Virus record (IMG/VR): IMGVR_UViG_3300049217_000078
Span: 1-44,012 of that record
DNA length: 44,012 bases
Reading direction: 5' to 3' (one strand)
Source: a virus
Part shown: positions 781 to 41,502 of the stretch, one piece after another
Layout of the letters: every line of letters starts with the position of its first letter
Numbering within the stretch: the first letter of the stretch is position 1
The notes under the pieces: generated by a model
Databases searched by the model: none
What the model was told of the DNA's origin: nothing
Seen by the model: the letters and a program-made list of their open reading frames with translations, nothing else
Made by a program: the position numbers and the translations under genes

Positions 781-2676
781 TTAGATCAATACTTGTTGTC
801 CGGTTATTAAATTAATATCATCGTCTTTACTGTAAATTAATGTATATTCCGCTTTATATTCAGTCAAACCGGTATTTGAATTAGTATAGGGGACGATTAC
901 ACAATTTACCCAGTAGCCTATGGTTTGTACTTGGTACCACGCATTTGGATCGCCCGTGGTAGAAGTAACAAAAGCTTTTTGCGAAGGAGTTAAAGTTTTA
1001 TTAGCGCTAATCGTGCCGTTATTTGTAGCTTCTTCTATGACGGATTGTAAAACTGCCAGTATTTGACTTTGACCCTGCGCATTTGCAGAAACTCTATTTT
1101 GAGTTAATAACAAATTAATCAAAGATGATTGCATTGCATCTTTTAGCCACGATTCATTAGCATAAATATTTAAAAACTGAGGAGCGCTAGCCGGACCTTG
1201 CATTAACCCTCTTTGGTAAAAAGCAAGTAGAGATCCAGCGGTTTGAGTTACTCCGTAGTAATTGACCCTTAACCCATCGTAAAAATTAGCAGTAACATCA
1301 TCCATGACGCTAGGGGTTAGTGAAGATTGTTGATACATATAATTTTGTACAGAATTTGGCTGATCATAATTGGTAGCGGCTTCAATCATCATTGGAAATT
1401 GTTCGGGGTATTCCGTAGACAAAGGCGCCAACGTAATTTCAGTTCCAGCAAAATTGCTAAGTACATTAGTGTAAGCAATCGCCAGAGTTTCATTCAGAAC
1501 AGGAACATGATAAATATAAGCCACGTTTTGAGTAGAATTCCATTGAGCAATCGCTGTGATATCGTCAAGACTAAGCGAATCAATGAATAAAAAAGATCCG
1601 AAGTTGTTAGAAGTAGCCGCAGAAGCAATCACTGCATCTAATGGGGTCGGAGCCGTTAAGCCATTTACCCATACCAATGTAGGACCACTTACCCAGCCTA
1701 GAGTATTTCCGATTGGTGTTCCTGCCACTCCTTCTTGCACACTAATGGTCACGTCGTCAGCTTCGCCACCCAAAAAGTTAAAGCTTCCTCGAGAAGTATC
1801 ATATGTAACTGTGGCTGAAGTCCATTGAGTACCGCCATCCGTTATTGCGCGAATTGAGTTTTGGATAGTTCCGGCAACATTCGCGAGAGTAGTATCTCCC
1901 GTAAAATCAATCCCAGTAAGCGCTTGAGTAAAATTGCCGATCGTTAAAGTAAAACTTCCGTCCGTCGTGCCTGTATATAGACCGGCACTTTGTGATTGGA
2001 TATTGCCCAAAATCTGAGGAGCTGTGGCACCCACTCCGTCTGAAACTATCAAAGTTGGACCGGCAACCCACCCTAAAAGATTACCAATTGGTTGCCCAAA
2101 AGTTCCTTCCGTGACTTGAATTACCGCAGGTGCACTATCCGATCCACCTTGCAAATTAAAGCTCCCTCTTACTGGGTCAAAAACAACCGTTGCCGCCGAC
2201 CATACTGCTATAGAAGGAAAGGCTGCTCGGATAGAAGTTTGAAGGATAGCCGCAACATCTGACAAACTGGCGGCCGCGGTAAAATCAAAAGCCGAAAAGT
2301 TAGCCGTGTGATCGCCCAGGGTGAGGCCCATCGTACCGCCGGTAATAGTATTGTACAAACTTATTGACTGAGGTTGAATATTGCCAAATATTTGAGGGAA
2401 AGTAGCCCCGGTCACATACCTTGCATAATCGATAGAAGGGGGGATTGTCCCGTTTTTACTAACCCACCCGAAATAATAGACCGCTCTTGAGTATTCCGGG
2501 GAGCTTGTCCCAAACCAACTACCCACCTCTGCAGCATTGGTAAAACTGATAAATCCGTCAGTAGGTACCAATTCATTTTGTGTAAAAATTCTACCGGTCA
2601 GACTTCTTCGGGGCACGGAAGAACCAGCACCGACACTGGATATAATGTCTACATATCTAGTTATTGAAATTGCCAT
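781..2676 (-). CDS. Contractile tail sheath protein with an internal tandem domain duplication
   Basis: 631 aa, adjacent to the tube gene. The N-terminus MAISITRYVDIISSVGAGS resembles DUF3383-type sheath proteins (from recollection; needs an HMM check). Residues about 93-218 and 220-340 are about 45 percent identical. Confidence 0.75.
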   Translation of the reverse strand: MAISITRYVDIISSVGAGSSVPRRSLTGRIFTQNELVPTDGFISFTNAAEVGSWFGTSSPEYSRAVYYFGWVSKNGTIPPSIDYARYVTGATFPQIFGNIQPQSISLYNTITGGTMGLTLGDHTANFSAFDFTAAASLSDVAAILQTSIRAAFPSIAVWSAATVVFDPVRGSFNLQGGSDSAPAVIQVTEGTFGQPIGNLLGWVAGPTLIVSDGVGATAPQILGNIQSQSAGLYTGTTDGSFTLTIGNFTQALTGIDFTGDTTLANVAGTIQNSIRAITDGGTQWTSATVTYDTSRGSFNFLGGEADDVTISVQEGVAGTPIGNTLGWVSGPTLVWVNGLTAPTPLDAVIASAATSNNFGSFLFIDSLSLDDITAIAQWNSTQNVAYIYHVPVLNETLAIAYTNVLSNFAGTEITLAPLSTEYPEQFPMMIEAATNYDQPNSVQNYMYQQSSLTPSVMDDVTANFYDGLRVNYYGVTQTAGSLLAFYQRGLMQGPASAPQFLNIYANESWLKDAMQSSLINLLLTQNRVSANAQGQSQILAVLQSVIEEATNNGTISANKTLTPSQKAFVTSTTGDPNAWYQVQTIGYWVNCVIVPYTNSNTGLTEYKAEYTLIYSKDDDINLITGQQVLI

Positions 2677-7980: not shown

Positions 7981-7981
7981 C

Positions 7982-8860
7982 TTATATTTCCTCTCCGTTT
8001 TCAAACTCTATTACCGGTAGCATAGTACACCGGCAATTTATGGCTTGGCCAGGGATTTGACCATTTACAAATCCTTCTTCGCCTTTTAGCGGTAGATCAT
8101 CAAAACTAAAGATCTTACCATCTAATTTCATATGGGAAATTCTTGGGTGTTGGCCACCACCAGAATGAATCCATTCAAATTTTTTAACACCTATAGATTG
8201 CATTCTTTGTTTATTAATTGTGTTATAGGCTTTTCTTGTTTGATCTAAAGCCAATAATGACACACGTCGGTCAGATTGTCCACTGTACTTTTTTATTTCT
8301 GGTTCTAAATCAGCCAGCCCATTTCCAGAAGTGATTGACCGCATTACCGCGCCAGATACTTTATCTAGGTACTCGGAAGGTATTGATTTAATCAAAGATA
8401 CATTCTCATTGATTATTGCTTGACTTACTTCTTCCATTCCTTTGGGGACTACACCCGTATTTAAAGATAAGCCGCCGCTTAATTGTTTTAGACTAGTTTT
8501 GAGATTTGATTGACTAGTTTTTAAAGTTTTTTCTAACATTCCTTCAGCCAGTTCTTTAGCTTTTGAATTAAAAAGTTTCTCGAATTTAGACATTAATTCA
8601 TTTAAAAGTTTTTTAGACTTTGAAGTTATACTAGCATCCATAGCGGCTTTTTTTTGTTGTTTAAAAAATTGCTTAGAATTATCACTTCTGAATAGATCCA
8701 GTATCTTTTTTTGTGACTCCGATATCATCAATCTAGTTAATTTCATCAATTCTCTTTTATATTTTAATTGATCACTTACATTATAATTCAAACGAGTTCC
8801 TTTTATGGCAACATTTCTTTTGCCAACCCAACTCGATTTTTTATTAGTAAGCTTAAGCAT
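7982..8860 (-). CDS. Head morphogenesis protein (SPP1 gp7 / Mu F-like)
   Basis: The C-terminal motif [22 protein letters not shown]...[10 protein letters not shown] is typical of this family. The start was chosen at MLKLTNKK (8858-8860), which overlaps the portal stop. Confidence 0.8.
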
Positions 8861-10361
8861 CTTCCAGTTCTTCTTGATAATCTTGATCTGGCTCAAATCC
8901 CTCTTCATGCAGCAACCCGTTATAACCAGAATCTGGGTCATTTATTATTCTTTTCCTTTCATCTTCGCCATTTATTGCTCCAACCTCCATCAATATTTTA
9001 CCGGTTTCTGCTTTACCTTTATTTACTAAAGCCTGTTCTTCTTCAGTCATGGCGTCTAATTTCACCCAGTTAATATGAGTTTTTATGGGTTTTATACCTA
9101 ACTTTGGAGCTATTTCAGATAGCATAAGTAAAAGATGATGTCTTTGAACTAAAGGAGTTACCTTTTCTTGTTGCCCCTCCAATTCTTGATGCCAACTAGC
9201 CTCATCGAATTCTCCAGTAGCGTTGAACCCTTTAGGGCTTGTTTCTAATAATTTAGTAGCGGGGGTGTTTGAAGCAGCGGCGACCAATTGAAATTGAGTC
9301 ATAATCACTGTGTCCAATTCTGCCAAAGATGTGTCTAATCGCGCGTACTCATCTTCAAGCCCTATGGTTTTAACTGCATAGTTATCCCTATTATACGCAA
9401 ATTGAGCCATTCTTTTTTCGAAATTTACTTGATTTGCTAAAGCTTCCGTGACGTCGCATTTTATTACATCCGTTCTTTTCGTCATGGCTAGCATCGGTGC
9501 TTCATTAGCAGTACGTTCGGCAGCATATACACGTTCATATATTTTTTGTGGGATAGGAATGCCACCGTATAGATAGGTCGGTTTAAGAATGTCCGGTACT
9601 TCTTCAGTCTTATATATGACTAAATGGGTTCTATGTATTAGTTTACCGGTTATTTGCCACCATGTTGGCTCATAAAAATATTCACTTCCTGGATCTCCCG
9701 CGGCTTTGTCATCTAGCATAAAAGACATCCAATAAGGATCAATTTGAGAAATTCCTTTATATGATCCTGGAGTTATACCATCGGGATTGAACGGTTTATA
9801 ATAATAGTCTTCGTCATCGGAATCCACGATGAACATGGCGATCCTTATTCCGAATATTCTTCCCATTTGTATAAATTCCACCAAGTGGTGGTTAATGTTG
9901 TATTTTAAATCACCTTCTCTAAACTCATTGAGTATTTCGGAATCTAATTCTTCCCCGTTATTAGCTGTAGTTTCATACCCTTTTCTTATTGCATCTTGAG
10001 CAGGTCTCAAACAAGCCTTACTGATAAGCCAATGCTGCGCAAGTAAAGCACAATTTTGATACCCGATAAAGCCTTGCGAGGCATACCATAATAATACGGA
10101 CTCTGATATCCCCGTGGCGTTGTTCAAAGTTTTAAATGACTGCAATGCCGCATCGGAAGCGTGTTTAACCGAATCCATCGTGCCCACCGGAGCTTTTATA
10201 TTTTTAGTGCTAAGCGGTTTAAAAGTATTTTCTAGTAATCCTTCCAATCTCATTTTTAATGAAACATCATTTCTAGTAAAATCAGTAGTAAATACTTTTC
10301 TTTCCGGTTTGATATCTTCCACAATTTGTTTTTTCTTAAAAATATTTTTAAGGAAACGCAT
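8853..10361 (-). CDS. Portal protein
   Basis: 502 aa, between terL and the head morphogenesis gene, with an acidic C-terminus. Possibly a DUF1073-type portal (from recollection). Confidence 0.75.
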
Positions 10362-11976
10362 CGAACATCCCTCCGCCTTTTTTCTTTTGTGGTGAAAAAG
10401 CTATCATAACAGCATCGGCAAGATTTGGCGATGCCACCCCCTCGGGAGTTTTGTCAACTATAATTTTCCCGACATTGTTTTGCATATAAGTTGGTCTTGA
10501 TAATTCTATTGTCAGTTTTGTTAATTCCGGTAATTCTTTAGGTATACTTATGATGTTATCGGGATCGTATTCGATCCCCTCTGTCACTGCGCGATGTGTA
10601 TTTTGAAATCTTAATCTGAGGGACCACCATGCTTGTGCTTTTGCATTAGCAAAGAAGTCAAAATTAGTTCGGCCCTTCCCTGGACCCCGCGCTTGTCCGT
10701 TTTTCAAGTAAGGGTCTTTATCTGGGTCTACAACTTCGCCAGAACCCCTGAAACCATTAAAACGTATTTCTGATAAATTTTGAGTAACTCGTCTTGCGTT
10801 AATAACTCTTGCATCTCCACGAACACCGGCACCCAGGCCGTCTGCGTCGTATAAAACACTAGCATAATCAAGAATATCGCATAAAGTGAAAACTTTTTCA
10901 ACACTTTTAAATATGTCTTCGCCTTTCCCAGACCATGACTCAATATATTCCAACAATACCCCATATCTGCCGCAGAAAGCATTTTTGTCTTTTCCTTCAT
11001 CCGCTACGTCCATTCCCGCTAATCTTATGCCGGAAGGTTGAATATTAAGTTTTTTATGAGCATCGATTGATGATTGTACCCATGCACTAGGAATAAGCAA
11101 CCCTTCGATTGAAGCAGAATAGTCTAAATCTATTTCTTGTGCAATTACTACAGGATCATCTAATTGATCGCAAATTTTTCTATACCAAATATCATCTTTA
11201 CGCGGATCGTCTCTCCAATGCAAAGTGAATACTGATACTTTTCCGCCGTGTCTTTTTTGTGCAAAAGGGTTATTCATTCCTCTGGGGGTGCTAATATCAA
11301 TTCGGCAATTCGTCGTGTTTGACAAAGAAGCTTCAACCAATGCAGGCCTAGGTAGCCACGCGGCTTCATCAACAAAATATATGGCCCTTCTGTCTCCTCT
11401 TCCTATGCCGTCCCCAGCTTCTCCCGAAATGATAGCTTTAGTCCCCGGGAAGGTTATTCGCATATGAGAGCAATTCTTTTTTATGTCCCATCCATTTTTA
11501 AATTCTGGTGGAAGTAAATGCAAAAACTGCCTAGCTTTTTCGAAAATGGATTTGGGGTCCCCTCTTAAATCAACATATTCTTCTTTTCTACTACCAAAGC
11601 CTATTGCCATGCCGTCGTAAAATAAACACAAGGTGCAAGCGTATGCTACAGATAACCAACTAAGCCCCATATCTCGGCTTTTGTCGCTTATTCCTCTTTC
11701 ACCATTTTTCCATTTCTCAATTGCCCATTTTATCCATTCTTCTTGCCTTTCAAATAATAGAAAAGGCACTCTTGAAGGCAAACCCCTTTCCACATTTCTC
11801 GGGTCGCTAGTGCAACCCCAGTCGATTATAAATTGCGCAGGATTTTCTTTGTAAAATAATTTTAACGAAGGCAGTACTTCAGGTTTCTTACGGATATTAG
11901 CAAGGCATTCCAATCGATGTTGGAACACCTTGACGTAATCTGGATTTCTGAAATCAAAATCAAATGGTAACGGCAT
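10348..11976 (-). CDS. terL: Terminase large subunit
   Basis: 542 aa. The N-terminal ATPase region contains [15 protein letters not shown] and FVDEAAW (Walker B-like). A C-terminal nuclease-like region is present. The gene sits immediately upstream of the portal gene. Confidence 0.85.
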
Positions 11977-12132
11977 TTATTTTTCTTCAGATTTTACTTC
12001 TTCCACCGCTGGTAATTTATTTAACATATCGAACAATATTGATATATTTTTTGCAGCAAATGGATAAGTACCTTCATTTAATGCATGTTTTAATACTTCA
12101 ATTTGTTGAGAATTAATTTTAAATTCTTTCAT
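11977..12132 (-). CDS. Small hypothetical protein (51 aa) abutting the terL start
   Basis: Not in the ORF track. ATG at 12130-12132 with a GAGGA Shine-Dalgarno. Translation: MKEFKINSQQIEVLKHALNEGTYPFAAKNISILFDMLNKLPAVEEVKSEEK. The stop is directly adjacent to the terL ATG. Confidence 0.5.
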   Translation of the reverse strand: MKEFKINSQQIEVLKHALNEGTYPFAAKNISILFDMLNKLPAVEEVKSEEK

Positions 12133-12141
12133 GTTTTCCTC

Positions 12142-12151
12142 ATCTATAGAT
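12142..12151. promoter_or_regulatory. Palindromic ATCTATAGAT box abutting the Shine-Dalgarno of the 51-aa ORF and terL
   Basis: Perfect 10-bp palindrome. It has the same TCTATAGA core as the duplicated boxes in the 33-bp inverted-repeat promoters. Confidence 0.4.
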
Positions 12152-12218
12152 TTGAAACTACAATTATATCTTATTGATGGATATAATAAAAGCCATACTT
12201 CGGCGATTACTTATCCAA

Positions 12219-12449
12219 TTAAGAAACGCTAGGTGGAGCACTATCTTGCATTGTAAATGCATATTTCCATTCCAATCCAGTATTGTCATTATTTGGTCCT
12301 TGATTTGAACACCAAAATATGGCACCAGTGTTTGAATTTATCCACCATGTCCCGTATTGAATAATTCCTTCATCCCAAGGCTCATTTGAAGTTGGATCGT
12401 GATCACATGTTAATCCCCATCCAGACCAATTTAATAGTGGTTGTGACAT
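12219..12449 (-). CDS. Trp-rich small protein (76 aa), last gene of the fibre cassette
   Basis: ATG with an AGGA Shine-Dalgarno. Contains WSGWGLTCDHD...YGTWWINSNTGAIFWCS. Function unknown; an assembly factor or lectin-like role is speculative. Confidence 0.5.
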   Translation of the reverse strand: MSQPLLNWSGWGLTCDHDPTSNEPWDEGIIQYGTWWINSNTGAIFWCSNQGPNNDNTGLEWKYAFTMQDSAPPSVS

Positions 12450-12453
12450 AATT

Positions 12454-12918
12454 TTATCCTAAGTATTTGATATACATCCATGAAACGTATGGAGAATTAC
12501 CTCCGCCTATACCTGTCGATGCAGACGATCCGTTGTTTACTTGAACGTTTATGTTAAACGTATTTCCTGCGGCGAGTTTTAATGTGCTCATCCCACATGT
12601 GCAGAATCTTAGAGAAGAATCAATGGAATTGATCAAAGAATATTCAGATAGTCTTGTTGATAATAATGTGCTATTTATCGTGCATAGATTACCATTACTT
12701 CCGCCGCTTACATTAGTAAGCATGAAGCTAGTAGCGATAAGATATAAACCCGGAACGGTTACGGTATATAAACCTGTAGCTGAACTATACCCAGAGCCAT
12801 ACAAGGTTGTGTCAAATTTTAAAACATAAACTGTCCCATTTCCTGTCACGTTTGTAACAGGCGTATTTAAATATACGAAAGTTGGAGGGACTAAACCAAA
12901 ATTACAAATATTAGTCAT
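12454..12918 (-). CDS. gC1q/TNF-like jelly-roll protein, paralog 3 of 3 in transcription order (154 aa)
   Basis: KFDTTLYGSGYSSATGLYTVTVPGLYLIA matches the gC1q signature core (F-D..., Y-x6-[FY]-x5-G-x-Y-x-[FI]). It has a TAATG junction with the upstream paralog. Confidence 0.65.
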   Translation of the reverse strand: MTNICNFGLVPPTFVYLNTPVTNVTGNGTVYVLKFDTTLYGSGYSSATGLYTVTVPGLYLIATSFMLTNVSGGSNGNLCTINSTLLSTRLSEYSLINSIDSSLRFCTCGMSTLKLAAGNTFNINVQVNNGSSASTGIGGGNSPYVSWMYIKYLG

Positions 12919-13367
12919 TAAAATAACCTCGCTATACTCAAATAGGTCGGGGAGCCATTTACCGTCAAAGTTTTAGATCCTCCAGAAGCGCTTAGATCAA
13001 GAAAAGCTGTATCATTTAAATTCATTTTTGCAATTATATATCCGCCAAACTGACAGACAGCAGCTGAACTTCTTAATGTAGAAGCGTTCATCTTAGAAAA
13101 TTGAAAACTTCCCAATGTAGTAACTAAGGTAAAATTCGTGTTTGCAGTAAGTGCCGATAGATTACCCAGCTCTGGCGTTATGCAAAACAAAAATGTTCCA
13201 GCAATTGTACATGTAAAAACACCTGTAGACGTATTAATGTTACCGCCTTGAATTACAGAATTGAAGATCATCTGAAAAACTGTTCCGTCCCCTGTTGCAT
13301 TTGTATAGCTGGTAGTGCTAGTCGCAAAAAGTTGAGGAGCGCTTGCTGAGTTAATTATATTTGTCAT
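12918..13367 (-). CDS. gC1q/TNF-like jelly-roll protein, paralog 2 (149 aa)
   Basis: IFNSVIQGGNINTSTGVFTCTIAGTFLFCI matches the signature core. The N-terminus MTNIIN is shared with the other paralogs. ATGA overlap with the upstream paralog. Confidence 0.65.
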   Translation of the reverse strand: MTNIINSASAPQLFATSTTSYTNATGDGTVFQMIFNSVIQGGNINTSTGVFTCTIAGTFLFCITPELGNLSALTANTNFTLVTTLGSFQFSKMNASTLRSSAAVCQFGGYIIAKMNLNDTAFLDLSASGGSKTLTVNGSPTYLSIARLF

Positions 13368-13813
13368 GGCAATCTAACTCCGCTAAAAGTGCTTAAAGTG
13401 CCAAAATTGATAACTTTAGTGCCATTTGAGACTTGTACCGTAACATGCACAGTGTCTCCTACTGACATTCTTATAGGAGCTACAGATGGAGTAAAAATCA
13501 CGTCATTAGAACTTGTAAAAGCATGGGCTAAACTGAAATCGCACGTTTGAAAACTTCCACCAGTTGCAATATATAGGAGGTTTGCATAAGTGTGAGACGA
13601 AGTTATCCCTGTTGCATGAAATCTCGTAATAAAAAGATATTCTCCCGCAATAGGACATGTAAATATTCCATTTGAAGTATTGTATCCAGAACCTGATGAC
13701 AAAGTATCCCATATGGGGGTATACACTGTGCCGTCCCCAGTTACCGTGGAAACTTGCGTAGTCAATGTCGCTAAAAAGAACGGAGTTCTTTGAGCATCGA
13801 TTATGTTAGACAT
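13364..13813 (-). CDS. gC1q/TNF-like jelly-roll protein, paralog 1 (149 aa from the ATG at 13813)
   Basis: IWDTLSSGSGYNTSNGIFTCPIAGEYLFIT matches the signature core, and the protein ends in STFSGVRLP, as in gC1q domains. The ATG overlaps the fibre stop (TAATG). The longer ORF-track form is an out-of-frame extension into the fibre gene. Confidence 0.7.
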   Translation of the reverse strand: MSNIIDAQRTPFFLATLTTQVSTVTGDGTVYTPIWDTLSSGSGYNTSNGIFTCPIAGEYLFITRFHATGITSSHTYANLLYIATGGSFQTCDFSLAHAFTSSNDVIFTPSVAPIRMSVGDTVHVTVQVSNGTKVINFGTLSTFSGVRLP

Positions 13814-16698
13814 TATGTCACCACCAAATTTAGACCTAACGCTGGATAAACAACCCATAGTCCCGAAGCTGAATCGGTTAATGTTGCACAATCGGTTGAA
13901 GAGCCTGTAGTTGAAGTTAATGTACCGCCAGCCGCGCTCAAAGAAGAAGCATACTGTATTTTGTCTGTACCATTTGCCGTTATTATCCAACCTGAAGGAC
14001 TAGAAGTGTTTAATGACTGTAAATCTATTTGTTTACCTGATCCTGTAGCCGGAAGCAAAGTATAAGCGCATTGTCCACCACTGTAATTATTAAAATATCT
14101 TGTTCCTAACGACATTGCTTGACTTGAACCGGTTACGGTAACCGCAGCAATAAAACTGTAGTTTGGAACGGTAGCTAGATTTTTTGATCCGTCTGTGACC
14201 ACGGCGTAGCTCGCGGTTAATCCAGACAAATTTAATCCAGTTGTGCTTAAAATGTTTGTACTTGGGTTGTACATAAGATTTGAAGAAATATCTTGCGCTT
14301 GAAACCCAGTGCTGGGTGAAGGAACAAAAGAAATATAATAAGAAGCATTAGTGGTGGTATTAGTAACATTAAGTAAAGAAGCTTGTGCAGCCGTGCCAGA
14401 AATACTAATCCCGTAAGTCCCACTAGCCGCCACCAAATTATGCCCTCCATCCGTCGCCACTAAATTAACGGTGGCTATGGAGCTTGCATTAACTGTGGCT
14501 AAACTTAATACATTAGTACTTGGATTATACGAAAATCCAGAATTTAAAGTGGCTTGTTGGTAACCATTTGTAGTGGAAGCCACAAACAGTGGATAAAAAC
14601 TTGCAGGCGTACTGCTGCTAATCGTATTGATGTTATTTGCATTGATAGCGACCGTAGTACTTGCAGAACTCCCGGAAATATTAATCGCGTATGGAGAAAT
14701 AGTATCTGCTGGAATTAAATTACTGGATCCATCTGTAGCTACTAATATATTTGTATTTAAATTACTCACATTGATATCTGGAGCAACTAATACGCCTGCC
14801 CCTGGATTAAAAAATAAGTTACTAGAGCAATTTCCGCTTCGGAAACCTGTTGCTGACGCATTTACAAAAGGAATAAAGTAATTTGCGGTGTTGGTAACAT
14901 TAGTAATGCTCCATGATGTCGCATCAGTTGCTAAACCTGCCGTTGTGGCGCTTCCGCTGATATTGCAAGTAAGGACATTCGTGCTAGGAACAAATGAAAA
15001 CGCGCTTGAAAACAGCGGACTTTGGAATCCACCGCTTGATGAAGCAACAAATAGCGGATAAAAACTGCTAGAGCTAGTGCTGTTATTAGTAGCCACGCTT
15101 GTTGCATCAGTTGCGGAACCCGCTGCGCCGGTAATGCTTATGGGCCAAGTTCCAGTCGCATTAGCTCCAGTGTTAGGAACAAGTGTAGAATTTCCATTAG
15201 GGAATGTATAAGTAGAAGCAGTCGGGAAATTCAGCGTCGCCGGCAATGTGCCAGTGATAAGCATGCCGCCATCCGCAATCAAACCCGTTGTTCCTGAAAA
15301 AATAGCCACATGGCCTGAAACAACGCCCCCTGTGACGTTTTCAAATGATGAACCGCCAGTGGTGCTTAAATACCAATTAGTTGAACCTTGAACAAGATTA
15401 TCAGTGCTGTTTAATCCTGCATATGTATCAATATTAAACAAGCGCCCAGATAAGGTGTTTATAACTAAATTATCCCCTGAACTAACATTATTTACAGTTA
15501 GTATTAACGCATCATTAGGGTTTAACGTCACTATGCCTGTTAAAGATGCAACAACAGGAGTAAAGTTATCTGTAGTTACCGTTGATGTAAAATAATTAGT
15601 ATTTACATATGAGCCGCCTGCCAGATGAATAGTGGGGTTAAAATTAAAAATTTGAGGAGTTAAGCTTGTTCCTCGCACTGTTACTGTAAAATCAAAAGCA
15701 TAAATTTGGGCAGTTGATGCAAGAGACTGTAATGCCGGGGTGTTTATCGGATTAAGATAAACATTCACCCCAACCGCTTCAACGACTGCAAATTTTGTTG
15801 CATCTATTTTAATTGGGGTAAAACTTGTATCTGTTGGAAAACTAACTGTGTTAGCCGCAACGGTATACTGCCCTTTTCCTATATCAGTTGCTCCGCTACT
15901 GCCTGCCGAATTCAGAGTAATAGAACCATCAGAATTATAATCGATGGCCATATTAGTGCCTTGAATCACTTTATCTTGCGTTAAAATGCTTTTAAAAGAA
16001 CCAGTTGAGTCATAATAATTCAATGCATCATTTGTTGTATTGTATGCAAATAAGCCAATTGGATTATCGCTGACGGTTAGACCATCTATTGCCGTTCCAC
16101 TCAATAGAGGAAAAGGCATGGACCCTTGATTTCTTATCGGAGACGACGCCACTTGCAAAACCGACGCTTGATAAAATGTTCCAGATTGTCCAACATTTAT
16201 TCCAACATTTTCAACGTGGGAATTTGTTGAACTTGTCCCACCAATGACAATGCGGGTTGGGTTAGTCGCATCTGATCCTATCATGGAAAAAATGGTGTTC
16301 ACATGGCCTTTATCTAGGATCTCATATAAGAAAAACCCCGATTCGCTTCCCGCTACTGACTCATAAGAAAAGCCGCCAGCCCATTGTCCAAAAAAAAGGT
16401 GATCCGTGTTTGGAGTAGTACCTGTGGCATTAATGGAAAATGACCGGTTTAAAACACCTACATCCGCGTTATTAAAGAAAGTTAGGAAATTTCCAGAAAT
16501 TTCTGTATAGGTACCGGCAGAATCTGTGAAATAGGAAGGATTCCCTACCCAACTTACAGATCCCAAATCCATGTTAATGATGGCCGGATTACCAGAGCTA
16601 TCATAAGCTACTTGTAAGCTAACATCGGTCGGTGGAACTCCACCATGAGCTACGTGAAATACTTCTAACCATTTTAAAAATTCACCGGCTGATATCAT
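13813..16698 (-). CDS. Long tail fibre protein (961 aa from MISAGEF)
   Basis: Rich in Ser, Thr, Asn and Gly. Contains four repeats of about 65-75 aa with the core [FY]YP/I-LFV..(x)G[FY]Q...S..[FY]NPSTN[VI]L. The start was chosen at the ATGA overlap with the upstream 68-aa ORF (16695-16698). Confidence 0.8.
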   Translation of the reverse strand: MISAGEFLKWLEVFHVAHGGVPPTDVSLQVAYDSSGNPAIINMDLGSVSWVGNPSYFTDSAGTYTEISGNFLTFFNNADVGVLNRSFSINATGTTPNTDHLFFGQWAGGFSYESVAGSESGFFLYEILDKGHVNTIFSMIGSDATNPTRIVIGGTSSTNSHVENVGINVGQSGTFYQASVLQVASSPIRNQGSMPFPLLSGTAIDGLTVSDNPIGLFAYNTTNDALNYYDSTGSFKSILTQDKVIQGTNMAIDYNSDGSITLNSAGSSGATDIGKGQYTVAANTVSFPTDTSFTPIKIDATKFAVVEAVGVNVYLNPINTPALQSLASTAQIYAFDFTVTVRGTSLTPQIFNFNPTIHLAGGSYVNTNYFTSTVTTDNFTPVVASLTGIVTLNPNDALILTVNNVSSGDNLVINTLSGRLFNIDTYAGLNSTDNLVQGSTNWYLSTTGGSSFENVTGGVVSGHVAIFSGTTGLIADGGMLITGTLPATLNFPTASTYTFPNGNSTLVPNTGANATGTWPISITGAAGSATDATSVATNNSTSSSSFYPLFVASSSGGFQSPLFSSAFSFVPSTNVLTCNISGSATTAGLATDATSWSITNVTNTANYFIPFVNASATGFRSGNCSSNLFFNPGAGVLVAPDINVSNLNTNILVATDGSSNLIPADTISPYAINISGSSASTTVAINANNINTISSSTPASFYPLFVASTTNGYQQATLNSGFSYNPSTNVLSLATVNASSIATVNLVATDGGHNLVAASGTYGISISGTAAQASLLNVTNTTTNASYYISFVPSPSTGFQAQDISSNLMYNPSTNILSTTGLNLSGLTASYAVVTDGSKNLATVPNYSFIAAVTVTGSSQAMSLGTRYFNNYSGGQCAYTLLPATGSGKQIDLQSLNTSSPSGWIITANGTDKIQYASSLSAAGGTLTSTTGSSTDCATLTDSASGLWVVYPALGLNLVVT

Positions 16699-16901
16699 TG
16701 GGCAATCCATCCTGAAATGTTTGTGACATTTGCGCCTGAATAAGTAAACGTTTGCACAAAGTTTCTGGGCATCCCGGTTTGCAAACTAGGGTAAGTGACA
16801 GTTATAGTTGCAATATTTGCACCACTATAAGTAAAAGTTTGCGCTAATGAATTTAAATCTAGCTGAGTACCATCGCTGGCCGTGACTGTTTCTGCCGACA
16901 T
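16695..16901 (-). CDS. Small fibre-associated protein (68 aa) with an internal QTFTYSGAN[IV] duplication
   Basis: Translationally coupled (ATGA) to the fibre gene. The motif is repeated twice. Confidence 0.5.
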   Translation of the reverse strand: MSAETVTASDGTQLDLNSLAQTFTYSGANIATITVTYPSLQTGMPRNFVQTFTYSGANVTNISGWIAQ

Positions 16902-16905
16902 CTGA

Positions 16906-17337
16906 CTAACTCCCTGTTGTCATGACTTCTTCGTATATCTTACCCGCTTCCACTGGGTCAGTGGTAGTTATTTTTAGCTCAAGTGGTGAACTTTTGTCTG
17001 TTTTGATTTTAGCATCTAGCTTAAGACTGCTCTCGGCTAGCCATTTAGCTTTTCGCTCTAGATAAAATAATATGCACTTAGTGTCACCTTGCTCTATTTT
17101 CTCTAAAAATTTATTTATTACAAACTCTAATAACTTGCTTCTTCCTTTTTTTATTCTTTCCTCTATTTCTGGATGTTGCTGTTTAGTATGATACCAACAT
17201 GATTTTTTAACCCCAAAATAGCCGCGTATTTGCTCTTGAGTGAATTGTTTTCGTGAAAGTGATTCAAGTTTGTCCAAAAATTCCTCATTTATTTCTATTG
17301 TAGGTTTTGGACCGGGTTTATTTCGTTTCTTATCCAT
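16906..17337 (-). CDS. terS: HTH protein, probable terminase small subunit
   Basis: 143 aa and the first gene of the late operon. The pattern GPKPT..(x)..FTQEQIRGYFGVKKSCWYHTKQQHPEIEERIKKGR...ILFYLERKAKW resembles HTH-type small terminases (from recollection). Confidence 0.5.
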   Translation of the reverse strand: MDKKRNKPGPKPTIEINEEFLDKLESLSRKQFTQEQIRGYFGVKKSCWYHTKQQHPEIEERIKKGRSKLLEFVINKFLEKIEQGDTKCILFYLERKAKWLAESSLKLDAKIKTDKSSPLELKITTTDPVEAGKIYEEVMTTGS

Positions 17338-17356
17338 GGTTTATCCTCCTGTTTAA

Positions 17357-17385
17357 ATTATACACTTTACTTCCCCACTAGTAAA
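17357..17385 (-). promoter_or_regulatory. Sigma70-like late-operon promoter TTTACT-N17-TATAAT
   Basis: Minus strand: TTTACTagtggggaagtaaagtgTATAAT. It lies about 20 nt upstream of the AGGAGG Shine-Dalgarno and the terS-like ATG. Confidence 0.6.
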
Positions 17386-17390
17386 CACAT

Positions 17391-17416
17391 GCCCGAAGCA
17401 GCAAAATACCCGAACC
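17391..17416. promoter_or_regulatory. Two TTCGGG boxes (read on the minus strand: GGTTCGGGT-N8-GCTTCGGGC) just upstream of the late -35
   Basis: Plus strand: gcccgaagc (17391-17399) and acccgaacc (17408-17416). Confidence 0.5.
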
Positions 17417-17682
17417 ATATTTCTTTAAGTCCGCCTATTCGGTCTTCACCTATCTTATTGTTTTTATTATTATTATTAATATAATGGACTGAAGGACCGT
17501 ACAATATATAAATTTTACATAAAGCTGTACATACATGTGGATAAGTAATAAAATAAGCATATTATGTACATACAGATTTCCGGAGGGTATGAACCCTCAT
17601 TTTGTTCGGTTATTTGATGGTAAAAAGCTTTGAAACCCACGTCTGCCAAGGGATGCCCGTGAACCGAATAAAATCGATAGGC

Positions 17683-17708
17683 GTTCGGGCCTGTTCGGGC
17701 TTCGGTCC
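17683..17708. promoter_or_regulatory. Three tandem GTTCGGGC / TTCGGTCC boxes at roughly 10-bp spacing, upstream of the rightward gene
   Basis: gcGTTCGGGCctGTTCGGGCTTCGGTCC. A possible TAAAAT -10 lies at 17723-17728 with no recognisable -35. Confidence 0.5.
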
Positions 17709-17743
17709 AAATGTTTGATTAATAAAATATGAGAGGAATCAAA

Positions 17744-18031
17744 ATGATAACACGAGATTATGCTATGGTAAATAGATTAAAAATCTATTATGACTGTTCT
17801 TCTTGTAAAAAAGGTCATCCGCCAGGTAGGTACACGAAAACAGGAAGATGTGTTTACTGTCACAGAGAAAACGCCAAAAGTGATAACCCTGATAGGATTA
17901 CTAAAAAGAAGCTTAAAACCGCATATGGGGTTTTAAAAGTGTATATGTATGTACATTCAGAAGATCTCCCTTTATTAGAAGCATTCGCAGCTTCTCTTCG
18001 ACTAGACCGCGGAATAATTCTTGATTTGTAG
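17744..18031 (+). CDS. Zinc-ribbon protein (95 aa from MITRDYA)
   Basis: Contains CSSC..(x14)..CVYC. A GAGAGGA Shine-Dalgarno favours the ATG at 17744 over the one at 17729. Confidence 0.55.
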   Translation: MITRDYAMVNRLKIYYDCSSCKKGHPPGRYTKTGRCVYCHRENAKSDNPDRITKKKLKTAYGVLKVYMYVHSEDLPLLEAFAASLRLDRGIILDL

Positions 18032-19530: not shown

Positions 19531-19563
19531 TACTATAGATCGTATTCTATAGATTGTCAACTA
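19531..19563 (-). promoter_or_regulatory. 33-bp repeat copy A: TAG stop + TTGACA-N17-TATAGT promoter with two ATCTATAG(A) boxes, pointing leftward
   Basis: The reverse complement equals 34714-34746 exactly: tagTTGACAatctatagaatacgatcTATAGTa. Confidence 0.7.
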
Positions 19564-36389: not shown

Positions 36390-36883
36390 AGCATCGCCCT
36401 CTTTACCCAACCTTCCAAGTTTTTAAGTTGCTTTCGATTTATACTAACACGGTTTAGATAAAATTTCACCAACTCCAATTTTATATGGTCTGACACATGG
36501 CATTCAGGAAGCTTATTGAGCATATCTATTGTTTGACTTCCGAAAATACCGTCTTCCGAAATAGGGTTAGTAATACGATTAATTGCTTTTTGAACACAAG
36601 TTGCGGCTGAACTAGGGGAAAGGTTTACAAAAAGTAAAAGTAATTGTGTGGATATAATGGGACTGCTAAGGGTATTTAGTTTATATTTTAACCAAAAATC
36701 ATTATAATAAATGTCAATTGCTTTATTTATTGTTAAATTTTTTATATCTAATTGTGGGTATGTTCTTTTTGTTATTCCAAAATTTGTTTCACCCCCCGGA
36801 TCATCAGGGTCATTGACGTATCCTCCTTCTTGTACTAAAAGGATGCCGACAGCTCTTTTAAAGTTTATATCTTGATAATCCAA
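36386..36883 (-). CDS. Endolysin, GH108-type N-terminal domain
   Basis: VQEGGYVNDPDDPGGETNFGITKRTYP matches the GH108 signature (EGGYvndp.DpGG.TnyGI). Confidence 0.8.
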   Translation of the reverse strand: MDYQDINFKRAVGILLVQEGGYVNDPDDPGGETNFGITKRTYPQLDIKNLTINKAIDIYYNDFWLKYKLNTLSSPIISTQLLLLFVNLSPSSAATCVQKAINRITNPISEDGIFGSQTIDMLNKLPECHVSDHIKLELVKFYLNRVSINRKQLKNLEGWVKRAML

Positions 36884-37722
36884 TTCATCACCAATGAAGG
36901 TTGAATATTATCGTGAGGTTGACCTGCACCACCATTAATTGCCCCCGTGTTAGTAGTACCGCCGGTATTAAATACATAGGGACGCCCGGAACCTCCTCCT
37001 ACAGCAATTTGTCTTAATGAAAATCCGGGCACTGTGGGGTGATTGTGATCTCCGTTTTGACTGCCCGTTAAAGCTATTGTTTCCGCACCGCCGATACTTC
37101 CGGGAGTATTTCCGAGAGTTCCGCTTCCAGTTCCACCAGCCCCTACAATAACCCGACGGGCCATAAATGGTAAATTAAATGTGGTAGAACCATCGCCAGC
37201 TCCGTATATTGTTCCAATTACTGCAAATAGTGCGGCATATGTTGACCGCAACACGGCAGAACCATCACAGAATAAATACCCGGACGGAAGCGTGGTACCT
37301 GCAAAAGCCGACACAACCCCCGTAGGCACTGGATTGCCGCTGACGATTTGCCACGAAGGATCAGTAGGGAGCGCCGTATTACCTTGCACTTGATTTTCAT
37401 ATATTTTAAAACCAGTGCCATCGTCATATCTAACATATGCATATAAATCATATGGGAAAGCCGTTCCTAAATTATCAGAAGTTGTAATAAAGTCGGGGAT
37501 ACCATGAGTTTGGTACTGATTTATAGCATCAGTGATATCGTAATAAAGTTGGTTAGTTTGGTCCCTAGGAATTGGTAACGCCGCAGGATCAGTGGATAAA
37601 TCTAACCCGTAGTCTGGCCCCCACCCTTGATTGTAACTTACAGAACCACTACCTTGTAAGGGGTCTGGTATGGCAGTTTTATCGCCAGACACAGCAAATG
37701 GGTACACGAAGAATTTAGCCAT
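36865..37722 (-). CDS. Short tail fibre or receptor-binding protein with a phage tail collar domain
   Basis: LPSGYLFCDGSAVLRSTYAALFAVIGTIYGAGDGSTTFNLPFMARR is a tail collar motif. Last gene of the baseplate block. Confidence 0.75.
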   Translation of the reverse strand: MAKFFVYPFAVSGDKTAIPDPLQGSGSVSYNQGWGPDYGLDLSTDPAALPIPRDQTNQLYYDITDAINQYQTHGIPDFITTSDNLGTAFPYDLYAYVRYDDGTGFKIYENQVQGNTALPTDPSWQIVSGNPVPTGVVSAFAGTTLPSGYLFCDGSAVLRSTYAALFAVIGTIYGAGDGSTTFNLPFMARRVIVGAGGTGSGTLGNTPGSIGGAETIALTGSQNGDHNHPTVPGFSLRQIAVGGGSGRPYVFNTGGTTNTGAINGGAGQPHDNIQPSLVMNWIIKI

Positions 37723-37736
37723 TTTATAATCCTTTT

Positions 37737-38339
37737 TTACAATATAACATAATTAACATTCACACCTGCCGGTTTTGGTAATAGATTATACCCAGCTATA
37801 ACATTTAGAAGAACAGGATTAATGGGAAAATTGAATTGATAAGTTATCGTCATGTCGAAATTATCAATCATCCATGCGCCTCCCGAACTACCGAAAATAT
37901 AATTCAAAAACTGATTGACTTCAGTGACCGCGCCTCGGCTAACTAATTGGTAATATTTTAATTGTAAAGCGGTGCGTTGTTCATCTTCTGTTAAAGTGGG
38001 AACCACTAAAGCTCCAGCTAAATTACCATGCTCAAAATTCAAGTTATTACTAACCGGTGGAATCACGTCAAATCCCCACACCGGAGGATCAACAGGTGCT
38101 TCACCTACTGGAACAAATAAAGGCAAATTTAATAGGATGGACCAAACTGTAAGTCCGAAAAGATTTGCAGTAGCTAAATTAAAAACATTGCTTTCCCAAG
38201 CTTCCCAAAATATTGTTCCATAGAGCGCCGTCCAAATATTTTTATTTAAAATCAATTGTTGGATATTAGAAGAATTCTCGTATTGCCAAATCAGTACTTC
38301 AAAAATGTTTATGTTGTAATTAAAATTTTCTATCTTCAT
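37737..38339 (-). CDS. Baseplate wedge / fibre-attachment protein (DUF2612-like candidate)
   Basis: 200 aa, directly after the baseplate J-like gene. Contains LIWQYENSSNIQQLI. Confidence 0.45.
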   Translation of the reverse strand: MKIENFNYNINIFEVLIWQYENSSNIQQLILNKNIWTALYGTIFWEAWESNVFNLATANLFGLTVWSILLNLPLFVPVGEAPVDPPVWGFDVIPPVSNNLNFEHGNLAGALVVPTLTEDEQRTALQLKYYQLVSRGAVTEVNQFLNYIFGSSGGAWMIDNFDMTITYQFNFPINPVLLNVIAGYNLLPKPAGVNVNYVIL

Positions 38340-39556
38340 ACGATGATCACCGTTATGTCACTTACTGCAATAGTTGCAATTTGAAATATGGTTATCGGCA
38401 ATGTGTTAGTAGAAAATGTTACGGGGGATTGCAAAGATACTTCAACTAAAGTAACAAAAATTGAACGATTGTAAAAATTTATTGCTCCAGCAATTTCAAA
38501 CGGAGAAACGCTGGTTCCCACCGTAAATCCCGTTTCACCTGGAATTAATCCAGCGGCGTAATTCAAAATAGCATTTTGAACCAAAGTTTGGGGGTCAGAA
38601 AGAGTATCTATTACTTTTATCGTAACTTGAATTTTTACAGGAATTGGCGTCGGTCTATCAAATAATATGTTCATAACTTGACCGCTAAAAGGCTCAGTAT
38701 AACTGACTGATACAGGAATCCCAGCGCCATTCGTATATTGACACCCTCCATTTTTCTTAGCAACCAGCGTGGCCGCAATGTCACTATCTGCACCACCATT
38801 AACACACAAATAAACGGAATTGGGTAACATCGTAACACCGTCTATTGTTTGTGTCGACGGAAGTACATTTTCTCTAAAAGTTGCACTCGTAACATTGGCG
38901 ACTGCATACACGCCGGATAGTATTGACTTGGCTAGACCTTCCCCTTGTATCGCCAAAGTGTTTTTTCTGTAAGCTCGAAGAGAGTCATCGGTTTGTGTAT
39001 CGGTTCCGATATTCGCAGCGGCGGCATTCGTGACAGTCTCCCACCCTAAAACTACGCTGATTATTTGGGTAAGGGTTCCCGGGCTGACTGCAATCGGCCC
39101 AGGATTAAGCGCTTGAAAAACAACATCAATGGAACCCGTGGTCGGAATTGTAACAGAAGAAACGGTTTGAAATATTTGTTGCCCTACAGTTTCTTGGGCT
39201 TGGGAACCAGCTGGGACAATTGTGCCACCTACTCCAGTTAAAGACCCCACTACAGTACTAAAAGAAGCTACCGTTCTTTGTATCCCGGTAAGAGCGCATA
39301 TGGCGTCTAAAAATACACCGCCGGCTAGATTAGGATTAATTTGATTTGCCAAAGTAGCATTATTAACGGCTATGCCATCCCTAGCTTGAGTTTCAGCCGA
39401 TATCAAAATCCCTTGTGGGGTGTTAGGAGTGACTATTAAATCCTGGCCAAATTGGTCTTGGTATTCATTTATTACTTGCTGATTGATAACTTCCGTATCA
39501 GGAATAATTACGCCGTCTGGTATAACATACTGATAAACATTATTAGAGAACGCCAT
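38336..39556 (-). CDS. Baseplate J-like protein
   Basis: 406 aa. Contains LDAICALTGIQRTVASFSTVVGSLTGVGGTIVPAGSQA. Position and size fit. Confidence 0.7.
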   Translation of the reverse strand: MAFSNNVYQYVIPDGVIIPDTEVINQQVINEYQDQFGQDLIVTPNTPQGILISAETQARDGIAVNNATLANQINPNLAGGVFLDAICALTGIQRTVASFSTVVGSLTGVGGTIVPAGSQAQETVGQQIFQTVSSVTIPTTGSIDVVFQALNPGPIAVSPGTLTQIISVVLGWETVTNAAAANIGTDTQTDDSLRAYRKNTLAIQGEGLAKSILSGVYAVANVTSATFRENVLPSTQTIDGVTMLPNSVYLCVNGGADSDIAATLVAKKNGGCQYTNGAGIPVSVSYTEPFSGQVMNILFDRPTPIPVKIQVTIKVIDTLSDPQTLVQNAILNYAAGLIPGETGFTVGTSVSPFEIAGAINFYNRSIFVTLVEVSLQSPVTFSTNTLPITIFQIATIAVSDITVIIV

Positions 39557-39899
39557 TAACTACTCCTACCCCGTAAATTGTTCGAATCGTCACTGTGTAT
39601 GTTAATGTATTATCCGACAAATCAGCTAAAAAAGATACAATTTCCAGCACCCCATCGACTTCAGCAAGTGTTGCTCTTAGGGCAGCTTCATACTGCTGGA
39701 TGTTAGGAACACCTACCCAAATCAATTGAAAATTTGGCAATCCCTGGTTAGTGGCGAAAATCATCTCTCCTAGTAGAGTTTTTGATGCATGGGCGCAAGC
39801 TTGCAAAGTCCCTTGCAAATCAAAAACAATCGCTAAGTTGCCATCTTTGCCTAAATATATGTCATTATTTGAATTAACTGCAAAACATTGGGCTGTCAT
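39543..39899 (-). CDS. Small baseplate protein (gp25/W-like slot)
   Basis: 118 aa, between the spike and J-like genes. Confidence 0.45.
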   Translation of the reverse strand: MTAQCFAVNSNNDIYLGKDGNLAIVFDLQGTLQACAHASKTLLGEMIFATNQGLPNFQLIWVGVPNIQQYEAALRATLAEVDGVLEIVSFLADLSDNTLTYTVTIRTIYGVGVVNGVL

Positions 39900-39910
39900 A
39901 TTTTTTTATC

Positions 39911-40681
39911 CTAGGGTGGCGGAGGTGCAGGTATTCCATTATTAAAGGATGTAAGAGCATCTCCCAGGCCATTAACATAAATATTCCCGCCAAAATACCC
40001 AGCATAAATAGTAGTTGCTATTCCGGTACAACTAAAGCCGGCTTGCATTCTGGTCAATCCTTGGACTACTAATTCGCCTGTGACCATAATGGTAGGGGAA
40101 TCGAGTGTTATGGTATTTACAGAAGTGATAGTAACGCCTGTTGAAGCGACCGTCACAGAATTATTAGGAGCAGTTAAAGTAACAGAAGTAGGAGAAAGTG
40201 AAACCCTTACGGTACCCTCTAAATTCTGAAGCACGGCATTACCGTCTTGACCTGTTGTCGTGTAATTAGCCAGCACTGAAGGAATGAACACGGCGTCTGA
40301 GAAGCTTTTGACACGCATGGTGTTTGGGGGTGATTCCGAGTAACTTTGTAAAAACAAACTTATATCTCTATCATTTGCAATTACAAAACCTAAATCTCCT
40401 ACAGTTAAAGGAAAATTTAAAATGTACCCGCCGCCGCCAAAATTTATTACAGGGATATTTGCGATTTGAGCACGGCTCACTTGGGCTCCGGAGGTGGACA
40501 CCATCGCAATCATTAACTCAACCTGTACTCGATTAGCTGTCCTATCGTACGCTAGAACGCGAGCGGGTAGCATACCATCTACATTGCGCATTAATTGGCT
40601 AAAAGCAAAACGTAAAACACCGGCAAGCGTGTCATTATCCGCGGGATTAATATTCGGATTGTTGCCTATGCTATCTGTCAT
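39911..40681 (-). CDS. Baseplate central spike (Gp138/Mu gp45-like N-domain plus beta-helix)
   Basis: Contains LPARVLAYDRTANRVQVELMI...IPVINFGGGGYILNFPLTVGDLGFVIANDRDIS, followed by the repetitive stretch VTLTAPNNSVTVASTGVTITSVNTITL. Confidence 0.7.
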   Translation of the reverse strand: MTDSIGNNPNINPADNDTLAGVLRFAFSQLMRNVDGMLPARVLAYDRTANRVQVELMIAMVSTSGAQVSRAQIANIPVINFGGGGYILNFPLTVGDLGFVIANDRDISLFLQSYSESPPNTMRVKSFSDAVFIPSVLANYTTTGQDGNAVLQNLEGTVRVSLSPTSVTLTAPNNSVTVASTGVTITSVNTITLDSPTIMVTGELVVQGLTRMQAGFSCTGIATTIYAGYFGGNIYVNGLGDALTSFNNGIPAPPPP

Positions 40682-41502
40682 GATCTACGTGCCGCCTCCG
40701 CAATGTAATAAAACGGTGTATCCCGATTTGCAATTTCAAACCCTAGTTTATATATAACATAACTCCCATTTACGGCAGGATAAATATCGCTAACAATATT
40801 TAGGCCGCCCCCTAATCTAGAAATATTATCCAATAGATATTTTACTCGAATTCCCTGTTCTGTTATTTCAGGTATTCCGATCATGCCGTTTGCGGCAGTT
40901 AAATCTCTAGCAGCACCAACTATTGGAACTCCTTGATTTTTAACTACCAGTATATCATCATCTATAAAGGCAACGGTACCCGCTGCGCCTAATAAAGCCA
41001 CTTGATCTAAAGAAGAGCCATTGAAAGTATAATTGCTTATATTTTTATTAGTGGCCTGGAAATTTAAAATAGTGTTAGTATCCTGCGCAATCCCTGCGGC
41101 TATCTCAGATAAACTAGCGATACCGGGTCTATTTCTAGCTAGAACAGTTCCTTTAGTGTAATTACCTGTCAGACACTTTAAAGTAATAGTCACGTCGGGT
41201 GGTTGGGAAACGATTGTACTGATAATATTACCGCTGTAAATAAGAGTAGTACCATAAGATTTTCTCCCAGCATAAAGCTTAAGGACTTTGGCCGTCCGGT
41301 TAGGATTGAACGGAGAAGTTTCGGTTAAAATATAATCTTGGGTAACTTTATCTAGATTGGTTATGGTTATTTGAGCTTCATTTTGTAATGGATTTGCGTA
41401 TTTCGTCCCTACTGCTTTTATATAAATTTCATCGTAGGTATTTATTTTACCGTTAACTTCAATCGATACTTGTACTACTCTGGGGTCTAGTTGATTCGTC
41501 AT
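40678..41502 (-). CDS. Baseplate hub or tail protein
   Basis: 274 aa. Assigned by position upstream of the spike gene. Confidence 0.45.
   Translation of the reverse strand: MTNQLDPRVVQVSIEVNGKINTYDEIYIKAVGTKYANPLQNEAQITITNLDKVTQDYILTETSPFNPNRTAKVLKLYAGRKSYGTTLIYSGNIISTIVSQPPDVTITLKCLTGNYTKGTVLARNRPGIASLSEIAAGIAQDTNTILNFQATNKNISNYTFNGSSLDQVALLGAAGTVAFIDDDILVVKNQGVPIVGAARDLTAANGMIGIPEITEQGIRVKYLLDNISRLGGGLNIVSDIYPAVNGSYVIYKLGFEIANRDTPFYYIAEAARRS

Follow-up and report, generated by a model that had tools for sequence, protein, structure and literature searches.

The 44,012-nucleotide stretch of DNA analysed in our study, hereafter the window, comprises positions 1-44,012 of the IMG/VR virus record IMGVR_UViG_3300049217_000078, a complete 44-kb contig with 38% G+C from an uncultured contractile-tailed phage (myovirus). 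Directly behind a long fibre gene, it carries three small paralogous genes, whose products we call heads A, B and C. We propose that fibre and heads form a two-part receptor-binding system, in which a fibre tipped with an adaptor domain carries detachable heads of the C1q fold; in our judgement this proposal is evenly balanced between being right and being wrong. The evidence that carries it comprises the folds modelled for head A and the fibre end, paralogy among the heads, their conserved synteny and the recurrence of adaptor genes followed by head genes; from these we infer docking through an N-terminal peptide, a location in the virion, receptor binding and an oligomeric state. All sources annotate the proteins as hypothetical. 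The elements concerned are the following.

13813..16710, minus strand: fibre gene, an open reading frame (ORF) of 965 residues whose stop overlaps the start of head A
13816..14163, minus strand: fibre C-terminal domain of about 115 residues, a predicted XD1-type beta-sandwich and proposed docking adaptor
13802..13822, minus strand: joint between fibre stop and head A start, GTGACATAATGTCTAACAT in the window and GTGACTTAATGACAAATAT in most relatives
13364..13813, minus strand: head A, 149 residues, MSNIID..., predicted stalkless gC1q-fold protein
13784..13813, minus strand: N-terminal peptide of A, MSNIIDAQRT, with a low predicted local distance difference test score (pLDDT) at residues 1-10; proposed docking peptide
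12918..13367, minus strand: head B, 149 residues, MTNIIN..., predicted gC1q-fold paralog
13338-13367, minus strand: equivalent N-terminal peptide of B
12454..12918, minus strand: head C, 154 residues, MTNICN..., predicted gC1q-fold paralog
12889-12918, minus strand: equivalent N-terminal peptide of C
12219..12449, minus strand: remnant of gene D, 76 residues, Trp-rich, with homology to the N-terminal domain of D in relatives

Three paralogous heads with a predicted C1q fold

The first-pass annotation of this DNA had described three tandem, overlapping ORFs of 149, 149 and 154 residues behind a long fibre gene. Our analysis verified their coordinates and all three junctions, which read TAATG between the fibre and A, ATGA between A and B, and TAATG between B and C. 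Every head start has a Shine-Dalgarno-like element upstream (GGTGGTGA, GGAG or GAGG), and the overlaps of start and stop codons suggest that A, B and C would be translated in equimolar amounts. In BLASTP comparisons the identity is 35% between A and B (expectation value, E, 4e-20), 34% between A and C (E 1e-17) and 32% between B and C (E 2e-12), a similarity that by these scores is far in excess of chance.

It had also been claimed that these proteins carry a gC1q/TNF-type jelly-roll, and the profile, sequence and model comparisons bear this out. Against the Pfam C1q family (PF00386, gathering score 23.7 bits), head A passes with 33.6 bits (E 5e-8), whereas heads B (19.8 bits, E 1e-3) and C (18.6 bits, E 2e-3) stay under the gathering score, yet are clear paralogs of A and have no other sensible match. 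A profile built from the three sequences matches C1q, C1QL1/3, adiponectin and collagen VIII and X chains in the PDB, the top sequence match being the single-chain C1q 5hkj. AlphaFold monomer models were made for head A, with an alignment of 129 homologues, and for the last 135 residues of the fibre. The model of head A (pLDDT 94.1, predicted template modelling score 0.85) is all-beta from about residue 11 to residue 148, and confidence is low at residues 1-10 only. When it was compared with the PDB by Foldseek, the top 24 matches were all gC1q domains (E 8e-9 to 2e-7, target-normalised template modelling score, TMt, 0.65-0.78), the best of them being C1QL1/3, collagen X NC1, caprin-2 and C1q with E values of about 1e-8. 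TNF ligands and three structures from phages rank next, one of the latter being the knob with which the short fibre gp33 of cyanophage A-1(L) binds cells (8ke9, E 2e-7). In BFVD, head A matches phage 'C1q domain containing proteins' with query-normalised scores (TMq) of up to 0.89. The phage gC1q/TNF-like knobs among the structure matches all belong to single-gene fibres.

The predicted domain begins at about residue 11, and none of the three heads has a collagen-like Gly-X-Y repeat, in agreement with the earlier description of the heads as lacking a collagen or coiled-coil stalk. We therefore regard all three proteins as predicted gC1q/TNF-type jelly-rolls, A from its model and B and C by paralogy.

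The fibre is predicted to end in an XD1-type domain

The AlphaFold model of the last 135 residues of the fibre has a pLDDT of 91.1. Its best Foldseek match is the N-terminal assembly region of CBA120 TSP4 (7rej, E 7e-6, TMq 0.60), and the three entries 7rej, 7rfo and 7rfv span E values of 7e-6 to 4e-4 and TMq of 0.53-0.60. Weaker matches are T4 gp9 and gp10 (E 0.05-0.3), and CpaA is also found. This set of proteins is the set of XD1 homologues listed in PMC8825819, and the fibre end is accordingly modelled as having an XD1-type fold. It has been reported that T4 gp9 and gp10 and CBA120 TSP4 are hub proteins of branched receptor-binding complexes (PMC8825819).

The domain is 39-80% identical across all the relatives described below, despite their differing shafts, and in one of them, L167, it sits on a separate protein of 225 residues. 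A search of the full library for this domain yielded about 30 representative proteins, in every one of which it lies at the very C-terminus. Pfam and PHROG searches with the whole fibre gave no match, nor did PDB sequence searches with the fibre outside its modelled end.

As for the shaft, the fibre has internal repeats of about 90 residues (FYPLFV...YNPSTNxL), and its distal half (13816-15100, minus strand) contains four of them, of the form SFYPLFVASSxGxQ...L.YNPSTNxL...VATDGSxNL. This type of shaft is common to the window, L005 and L181, and another is present in L001, L002, L004, L162 and L164; all shaft types precede the same C-terminal domain. The gene tables flag the Pfam family PTL_trimer (PF26696) in the fibres of L001, L002, L162 and L167.

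Adaptor genes are recurrently followed by head genes

The association between the fibre end and the heads was surveyed with a profile of the fibre C-terminal domain over 139 unique loci, which had been collected solely for having a gC1q gene. The profile identified 78 ORFs with the domain, which is located at the extreme C-terminus in 73 of them. A gC1q gene directly follows 49 of the 78, the number of heads behind one adaptor gene being 1, 2, 3, 4 or 7. Viewed from the other side, an adjacent upstream adaptor is present in 15 of 18 triple runs, in 11 of 19 double runs and for 22 of 128 single gC1q genes. That adaptor and head genes recur in this order on contigs with no other relationship is the strongest indication that fibre and heads may interact, and it supports, at the level of gene order, a functional link between the heads and the fibre end. 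The arrangement is also common in uncultured phages.

The trio is kept in related phages

The same triple-paralog synteny was found in other phages. The order fibre-A-B-C is kept in eight further distinct contigs (L001, L002, L004, L005, L162, L164, L165 and L167), which makes nine with the window, and also in a tenth, the nanopore-derived L181, in which assembly frameshifts interrupt the fibre gene. The fibre genes at the equivalent position encode 1006-1096 residues, except in L167, where the fibre is split into proteins of 722 and 225 residues. Start and stop overlaps are retained in most relatives. A stand-alone adaptor protein of 140 residues in L181 (P0135, 1-1170) was discarded as an artefact, being the end of the frameshifted fibre; upstream of it, fibre repeats are seen in all three frames.

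The heads form three orthologous groups, with identities of 31-78% within groups and 16-45% between them; therefore, the triplication is older than these phages, all of which have retained every copy. The mean identity of the heads is 42-50%, group B being the most variable (mean 42%), and that of the fibre C-terminal domain is higher (58%). Pairwise identities of A, B and C are correlated with one another (r 0.6-0.8) but not with those of the fibre C-terminal domain (r 0.1-0.35), and therefore recombination must have taken place around the fibre/A joint. Nowhere in the cassette is the DNA better conserved than at the joint itself (13802..13822), where the mean pairwise nucleotide identity is 0.86, compared with about 0.5-0.6 in its flanks, over 10 loci. 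Taken together, the correlations and the conserved joint indicate that the trio travels as one block that is exchanged at the joint, and we consider that it is inherited as such.

The neighbours of the cassette differ among the relatives, with three genomic settings (terminase, replication and lysis). The cassette lies next to terminase genes in the window and next to replication or lysis genes in L164, L165 and L167, and so fibre-A-B-C-D appears to behave as a mobile host-recognition island.

The N-terminal peptide and the wider family

The N-terminal motif M-[TS]-N-I, to which the first reading of the sequence had drawn attention, is indeed common to A, B, C and their orthologs. Most proteins of the wider family start with M-A-T-(I/N)-N-(S/A), of which the MTNII of the heads is a close variant, and the strict N-terminal motif is about 20-fold enriched (39/228 against 29/3510 control ORFs). 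In arrays, conservation is usually higher in the N-terminal part than in the head (72 vs 44%, 77 vs 46% and 59 vs 35%), a pattern that is typical of alternative receptor-binding proteins that use one attachment site. Because a Gly-rich protein starting with MTNIIG fills the fourth slot in L164, and one starting with MATQN comes after the fibres in L171, it seems that the N-terminal peptide, rather than the gC1q fold, accompanies the adaptor, which suggests that the peptide is a transferable docking tag.

On viral and metagenomic contigs, hundreds of fibre-like proteins with lengths of 165-1170 residues also have the gC1q domain as their C-terminal part, and the gC1q proteins of the wider family occur in tandem arrays of 1, 2, 3, 4 or 7. 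Relatives in L062 are nearly as short as the heads (156 and 158 residues). One protein of 392 residues, P0039, encoded on a 2.2-kb metagenome contig, combines a MATNNNWNN anchor and a short shaft with two gC1q domains in series, separated by a linker of about 8 residues; how these would stack in a trimer is puzzling because a gC1q domain has its N- and C-terminus on the same side, at the base. No fusion of three gC1q domains was seen among the family members.

Proposed mechanism and the points that weigh against it

In the mechanism that we propose, the 965-residue protein would be a trimeric fibre whose last 115 or so residues act as the XD1-type beta-sandwich adaptor. The three genes behind it would provide bare jelly-roll heads, each with a flexible N-terminal peptide of about 10 residues (M-T/S-N-I...). 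A gC1q trimer has all its chain ends at the base, so that the three peptides of a head trimer would be placed to engage the trimeric fibre end, and the loops at the apex would stay free for the host surface. Each head would most likely be a homotrimer, and the fibres of a virion would carry A3, B3 or C3 tips, or several of these, so that host recognition is widened or secured. We take the homotrimer as the default because the number of heads per adaptor varies and because the same knob is found in single-gene fibres; independent homotrimers, or mixed trimers, probably fit the variable head number better than an obligate A·B·C trimer does. The first-pass annotation had favoured a C1q-style heterotrimer and offered interchangeable homotrimeric tips as an alternative; it is this alternative that is currently better supported.

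It is important to consider that several observations weigh against the proposed system. In the survey, 29 of the 78 adaptor ORFs have no gC1q gene directly behind them and many gC1q genes have no adjacent adaptor; moreover, L171 has fibres with this domain and no gC1q gene, its fibres being followed by the Gly-rich protein that starts with MATQN. The domains for which partner docking has been proven in TSP4 and gp10 are XD2 and XD3, whereas XD1 has been described as a spacer whose function is unclear, and the XD1 fold binds glycans in CpaA and StcE (PMC8825819). Because XD1 is not a proven dock and binds glycans in those proteins, the fibre end could itself be a receptor-binding domain instead of a dock. 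Head C has conserved group-specific loops, NIINGANGNL (as TNIINGANGNL between strands C and D) and GGxSPYxxW before the last strand, which by topology would lie at the trimer apex; this conservation is unexpected for a fast-evolving receptor-binding surface and may reflect a conserved ligand or protein contact. The strict number of three copies, their fixed order and their inheritance as a block would also be expected of an obligate hetero-oligomer.

Alternative explanations

The alternative that survives best, although we consider it unlikely, is that A, B and C form an obligate 1:1:1 gC1q heterotrimer, a single knob with pseudo-threefold symmetry that caps the homotrimeric fibre through its XD1-like end, the three similar N-terminal peptides engaging three identical subunits of the fibre end. 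Animal members of the gC1q and TNF families often heterotrimerise, and a conserved peptide on diverged paralogs suits three chains at three equivalent sites. Within the clade there are always exactly three genes, from three ancient orthologous groups in one order, with start/stop overlaps kept in most relatives, and recombination at the fibre/A joint but none detectable within the trio. Over 1.4 kb, simple linkage would also be expected to produce such block inheritance. Outside the clade, the wider family commonly has 1, 2, 4 or 7 heads per adaptor gene, doubles being at least as frequent as triples, and proteins in which three domains are naturally fused were not found, the sole multi-domain relative (P0039) having two gC1q domains in series. 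A viral precedent is provided by the virophage DSLV2 (PMC12724248). If a heterotrimer were confirmed, phages would have arrived independently at a counterpart of the head of complement C1q, and it would be the first receptor-binding knob of a tailed phage known to be heterotrimeric.

A considerably less probable alternative is that the gC1q proteins are helpers of tail-fibre assembly, which would bind the C-terminal end of the fibre, aid its trimerisation and then be released or persist as passive caps. Genes of the Tfa/gp38 type are classically found directly downstream of the fibre gene, and the heads occupy this place, with overlapping starts and stops, a recurrent adaptor-then-head pairing, and a conserved N-terminal and variable C-terminal part as in Tfa proteins. 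Nevertheless, Pfam and PHROG searches of A, B, C and D gave no match to a tail-fibre assembly family of the Tfa/gp38 type; the PHROG matches of the heads are instead to the C-terminal ends of 'tail protein' and 'minor tail protein' families. In addition, hundreds of full-length fibre-like proteins carry the domain as their C-terminal knob, gC1q folds of known function all serve in recognition, and three to seven chaperones per fibre would be unusual.

Equally improbable is that the heads are independent mini-fibres or decoration or lectin proteins attached elsewhere (baseplate, neck or capsid), next to the fibre gene merely because both belong to a host-recognition island: the MATxN N-terminus is common to longer fibre-like proteins that are possibly attached to the baseplate, XD1 is no proven docking domain, and the cassette is flanked by terS and terL, at a distance from the baseplate genes, but this would leave the tight and recurrent adjacency to proteins with XD1-like ends unexplained, and a tail of 10 residues is short for insertion into a baseplate.

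Comparison with known systems

Phage C1q-domain proteins located by tail fibres have been treated as variable receptor-binding proteins in metaviromic islands of pelagiphages (PMC3909814), in a Mu-like cryoconite phage (PMC7468147) and in fibres of extracellular contractile injection systems (PMC12923769). Like the heads, they have the same domain, lie beside or downstream of a fibre, vary among related phages and have an inferred role in host recognition. They differ in having 200-1200 residues, with an N-terminal anchor and a shaft in the same chain, whereas the heads are encoded by separate shaftless genes of 149-154 residues, in a fixed trio behind a fibre with an XD1-like end. The earlier claim of an unusual architecture thus holds in part: C1q-domain receptor-binding proteins were already published, and what is new is the stalkless, fixed trio together with the XD1-like fibre end. 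The gp33 protein of cyanophage A-1(L) has been shown to be a receptor-binding protein that binds host cells (PMC10966104). Its knob (8ke9) resembles the proposed head tips as a trimeric jelly-roll at the far end of a myovirus fibre, and differs in being a covalent part of the fibre chain and a homotrimer, with no separate head gene.

In branched complexes (T4 gp10 with gp11 and gp12, CBA120 TSP4 with TSP1-3, and G7C gp66 with gp63.1; PMC8825819), small beta-sandwich domains of a trimeric hub dock the N-terminal ends of other trimeric receptor-binding proteins, and several receptor-binding genes lie in tandem, as the head genes do here. Unlike those hubs, the fibre of the window matches XD1 and not the proven docking domains XD2 and XD3, it has the domain at the C-terminal tip of a long fibre and not near a baseplate-proximal N-terminus, and its proposed partners are tiny gC1q heads and not tailspikes. 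Three consecutive tail-protein genes of DSLV2 are reported to encode proteins that co-purify as a 1:1:1 heterotrimer binding host lipopolysaccharide (PMC12724248). These genes are conserved, small and paralogous, as in our trio, but the fold is that of a needle resembling the tip of gp37, not gC1q, and the virus group is different.

Vertebrate complement C1q also has three tandemly encoded gC1q paralogs of the same fold. Unlike its chains, the heads have no collagen stalk, and the identity is 17-22% in structural alignments, with no sign of a recent common origin; the agreement in gene number may be due to chance, since the count of heads in related phages ranges from 1 to 7. In T2 and S16 (gp38) and in Mu and P2 (Tfa), the gene directly after the fibre gene encodes a small protein that binds the C-terminal tip of the fibre, and gp38 of T2-type phages carries the receptor specificity. 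These proteins differ from the heads in having an unrelated fold and a single gene instead of a trio, and the heads have no match to their families.

The range of bacteria open to infection by a phage is set by its receptor-binding proteins, which are also the parts chosen for re-engineering. If the proposed system is real, many uncultured phages would split host recognition between a conserved fibre with an adaptor tip and separately encoded gC1q heads, about 150 residues long, that a peptide of ten residues holds in place and that are swapped as cassettes at a conserved DNA joint, which would make it a very compact and naturally modular retargeting system. It would also give a role to the XD1-type domain of T4 gp9 and gp10 and CBA120 TSP4. 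In any case, the trio is a clean test case for whether heterotrimerisation of viral gC1q proteins diversifies binding surfaces, as it does in their animal relatives.

Genomic setting and gene D

The window also encodes a major capsid protein, a protease and a portal protein. The fibre-A-B-C-D cassette is on the minus strand between the gene similar to the terminase small subunit (TerS) and TerL, remote from the baseplate module. The features around it are as follows.

781..2676: sheath gene
10348..11976, minus strand: TerL
16906..17337, minus strand: TerS-like gene (PHROG terminase small subunit, E 3e-13)
36865..37722, minus strand: second, baseplate-linked fibre, 285 residues, with a Phage Tail Collar domain (PF07484, E 1e-19)
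37737..41502: baseplate genes

A scan of 11800-17800 for promoters and terminators gave no signal above shuffled background, and the cassette has no internal terminator. A programmed frameshift that would fuse the fibre to head A was considered and rejected, as the open A frame upstream is too short in the relatives: it extends over 62 codons in the window, 2 in L005, 10 in L165 (plus a 15-nt gap) and 15-40 elsewhere, and its seeming conservation is due to the fibre C-terminus being itself conserved. Nucleotide and protein searches of the INPHARED phage genomes gave no match, and a scan of 185,579 reference genomes gave distant matches to metagenome-assembled genomes only; neither a cultured relative nor a related prophage was found in these searches.

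In the relatives, head C is usually followed by gene D, of 166-179 residues, which (for example in L001, 7371-7910) has a conserved beta-rich C-terminal domain, SSPAFNSPRTP...VDTGSG...VPAGAxY. The C-terminal 100 or so residues of D are present in L001, L002, L162, L165, L167 and L181 and missing in the window and L005. Searches with D gave no family or structure match in Pfam, PHROG or the PDB. A role of D as a universal adaptor or chaperone was rejected, given that it is cut to about 75 residues in the window and L005 and replaced in L164, where the slot (7371-8522) is filled by a fibre-like protein of 383 residues that belongs to Gly_rich_2 (PF21722) and starts with MTNIIG; therefore, D is not essential to the trio. 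Elsewhere in the window, the gene at 19561-21891 (minus strand) lies at a position where the relatives' gene is annotated as an NrS-1-type primase-polymerase (PF22763/DUF5906).

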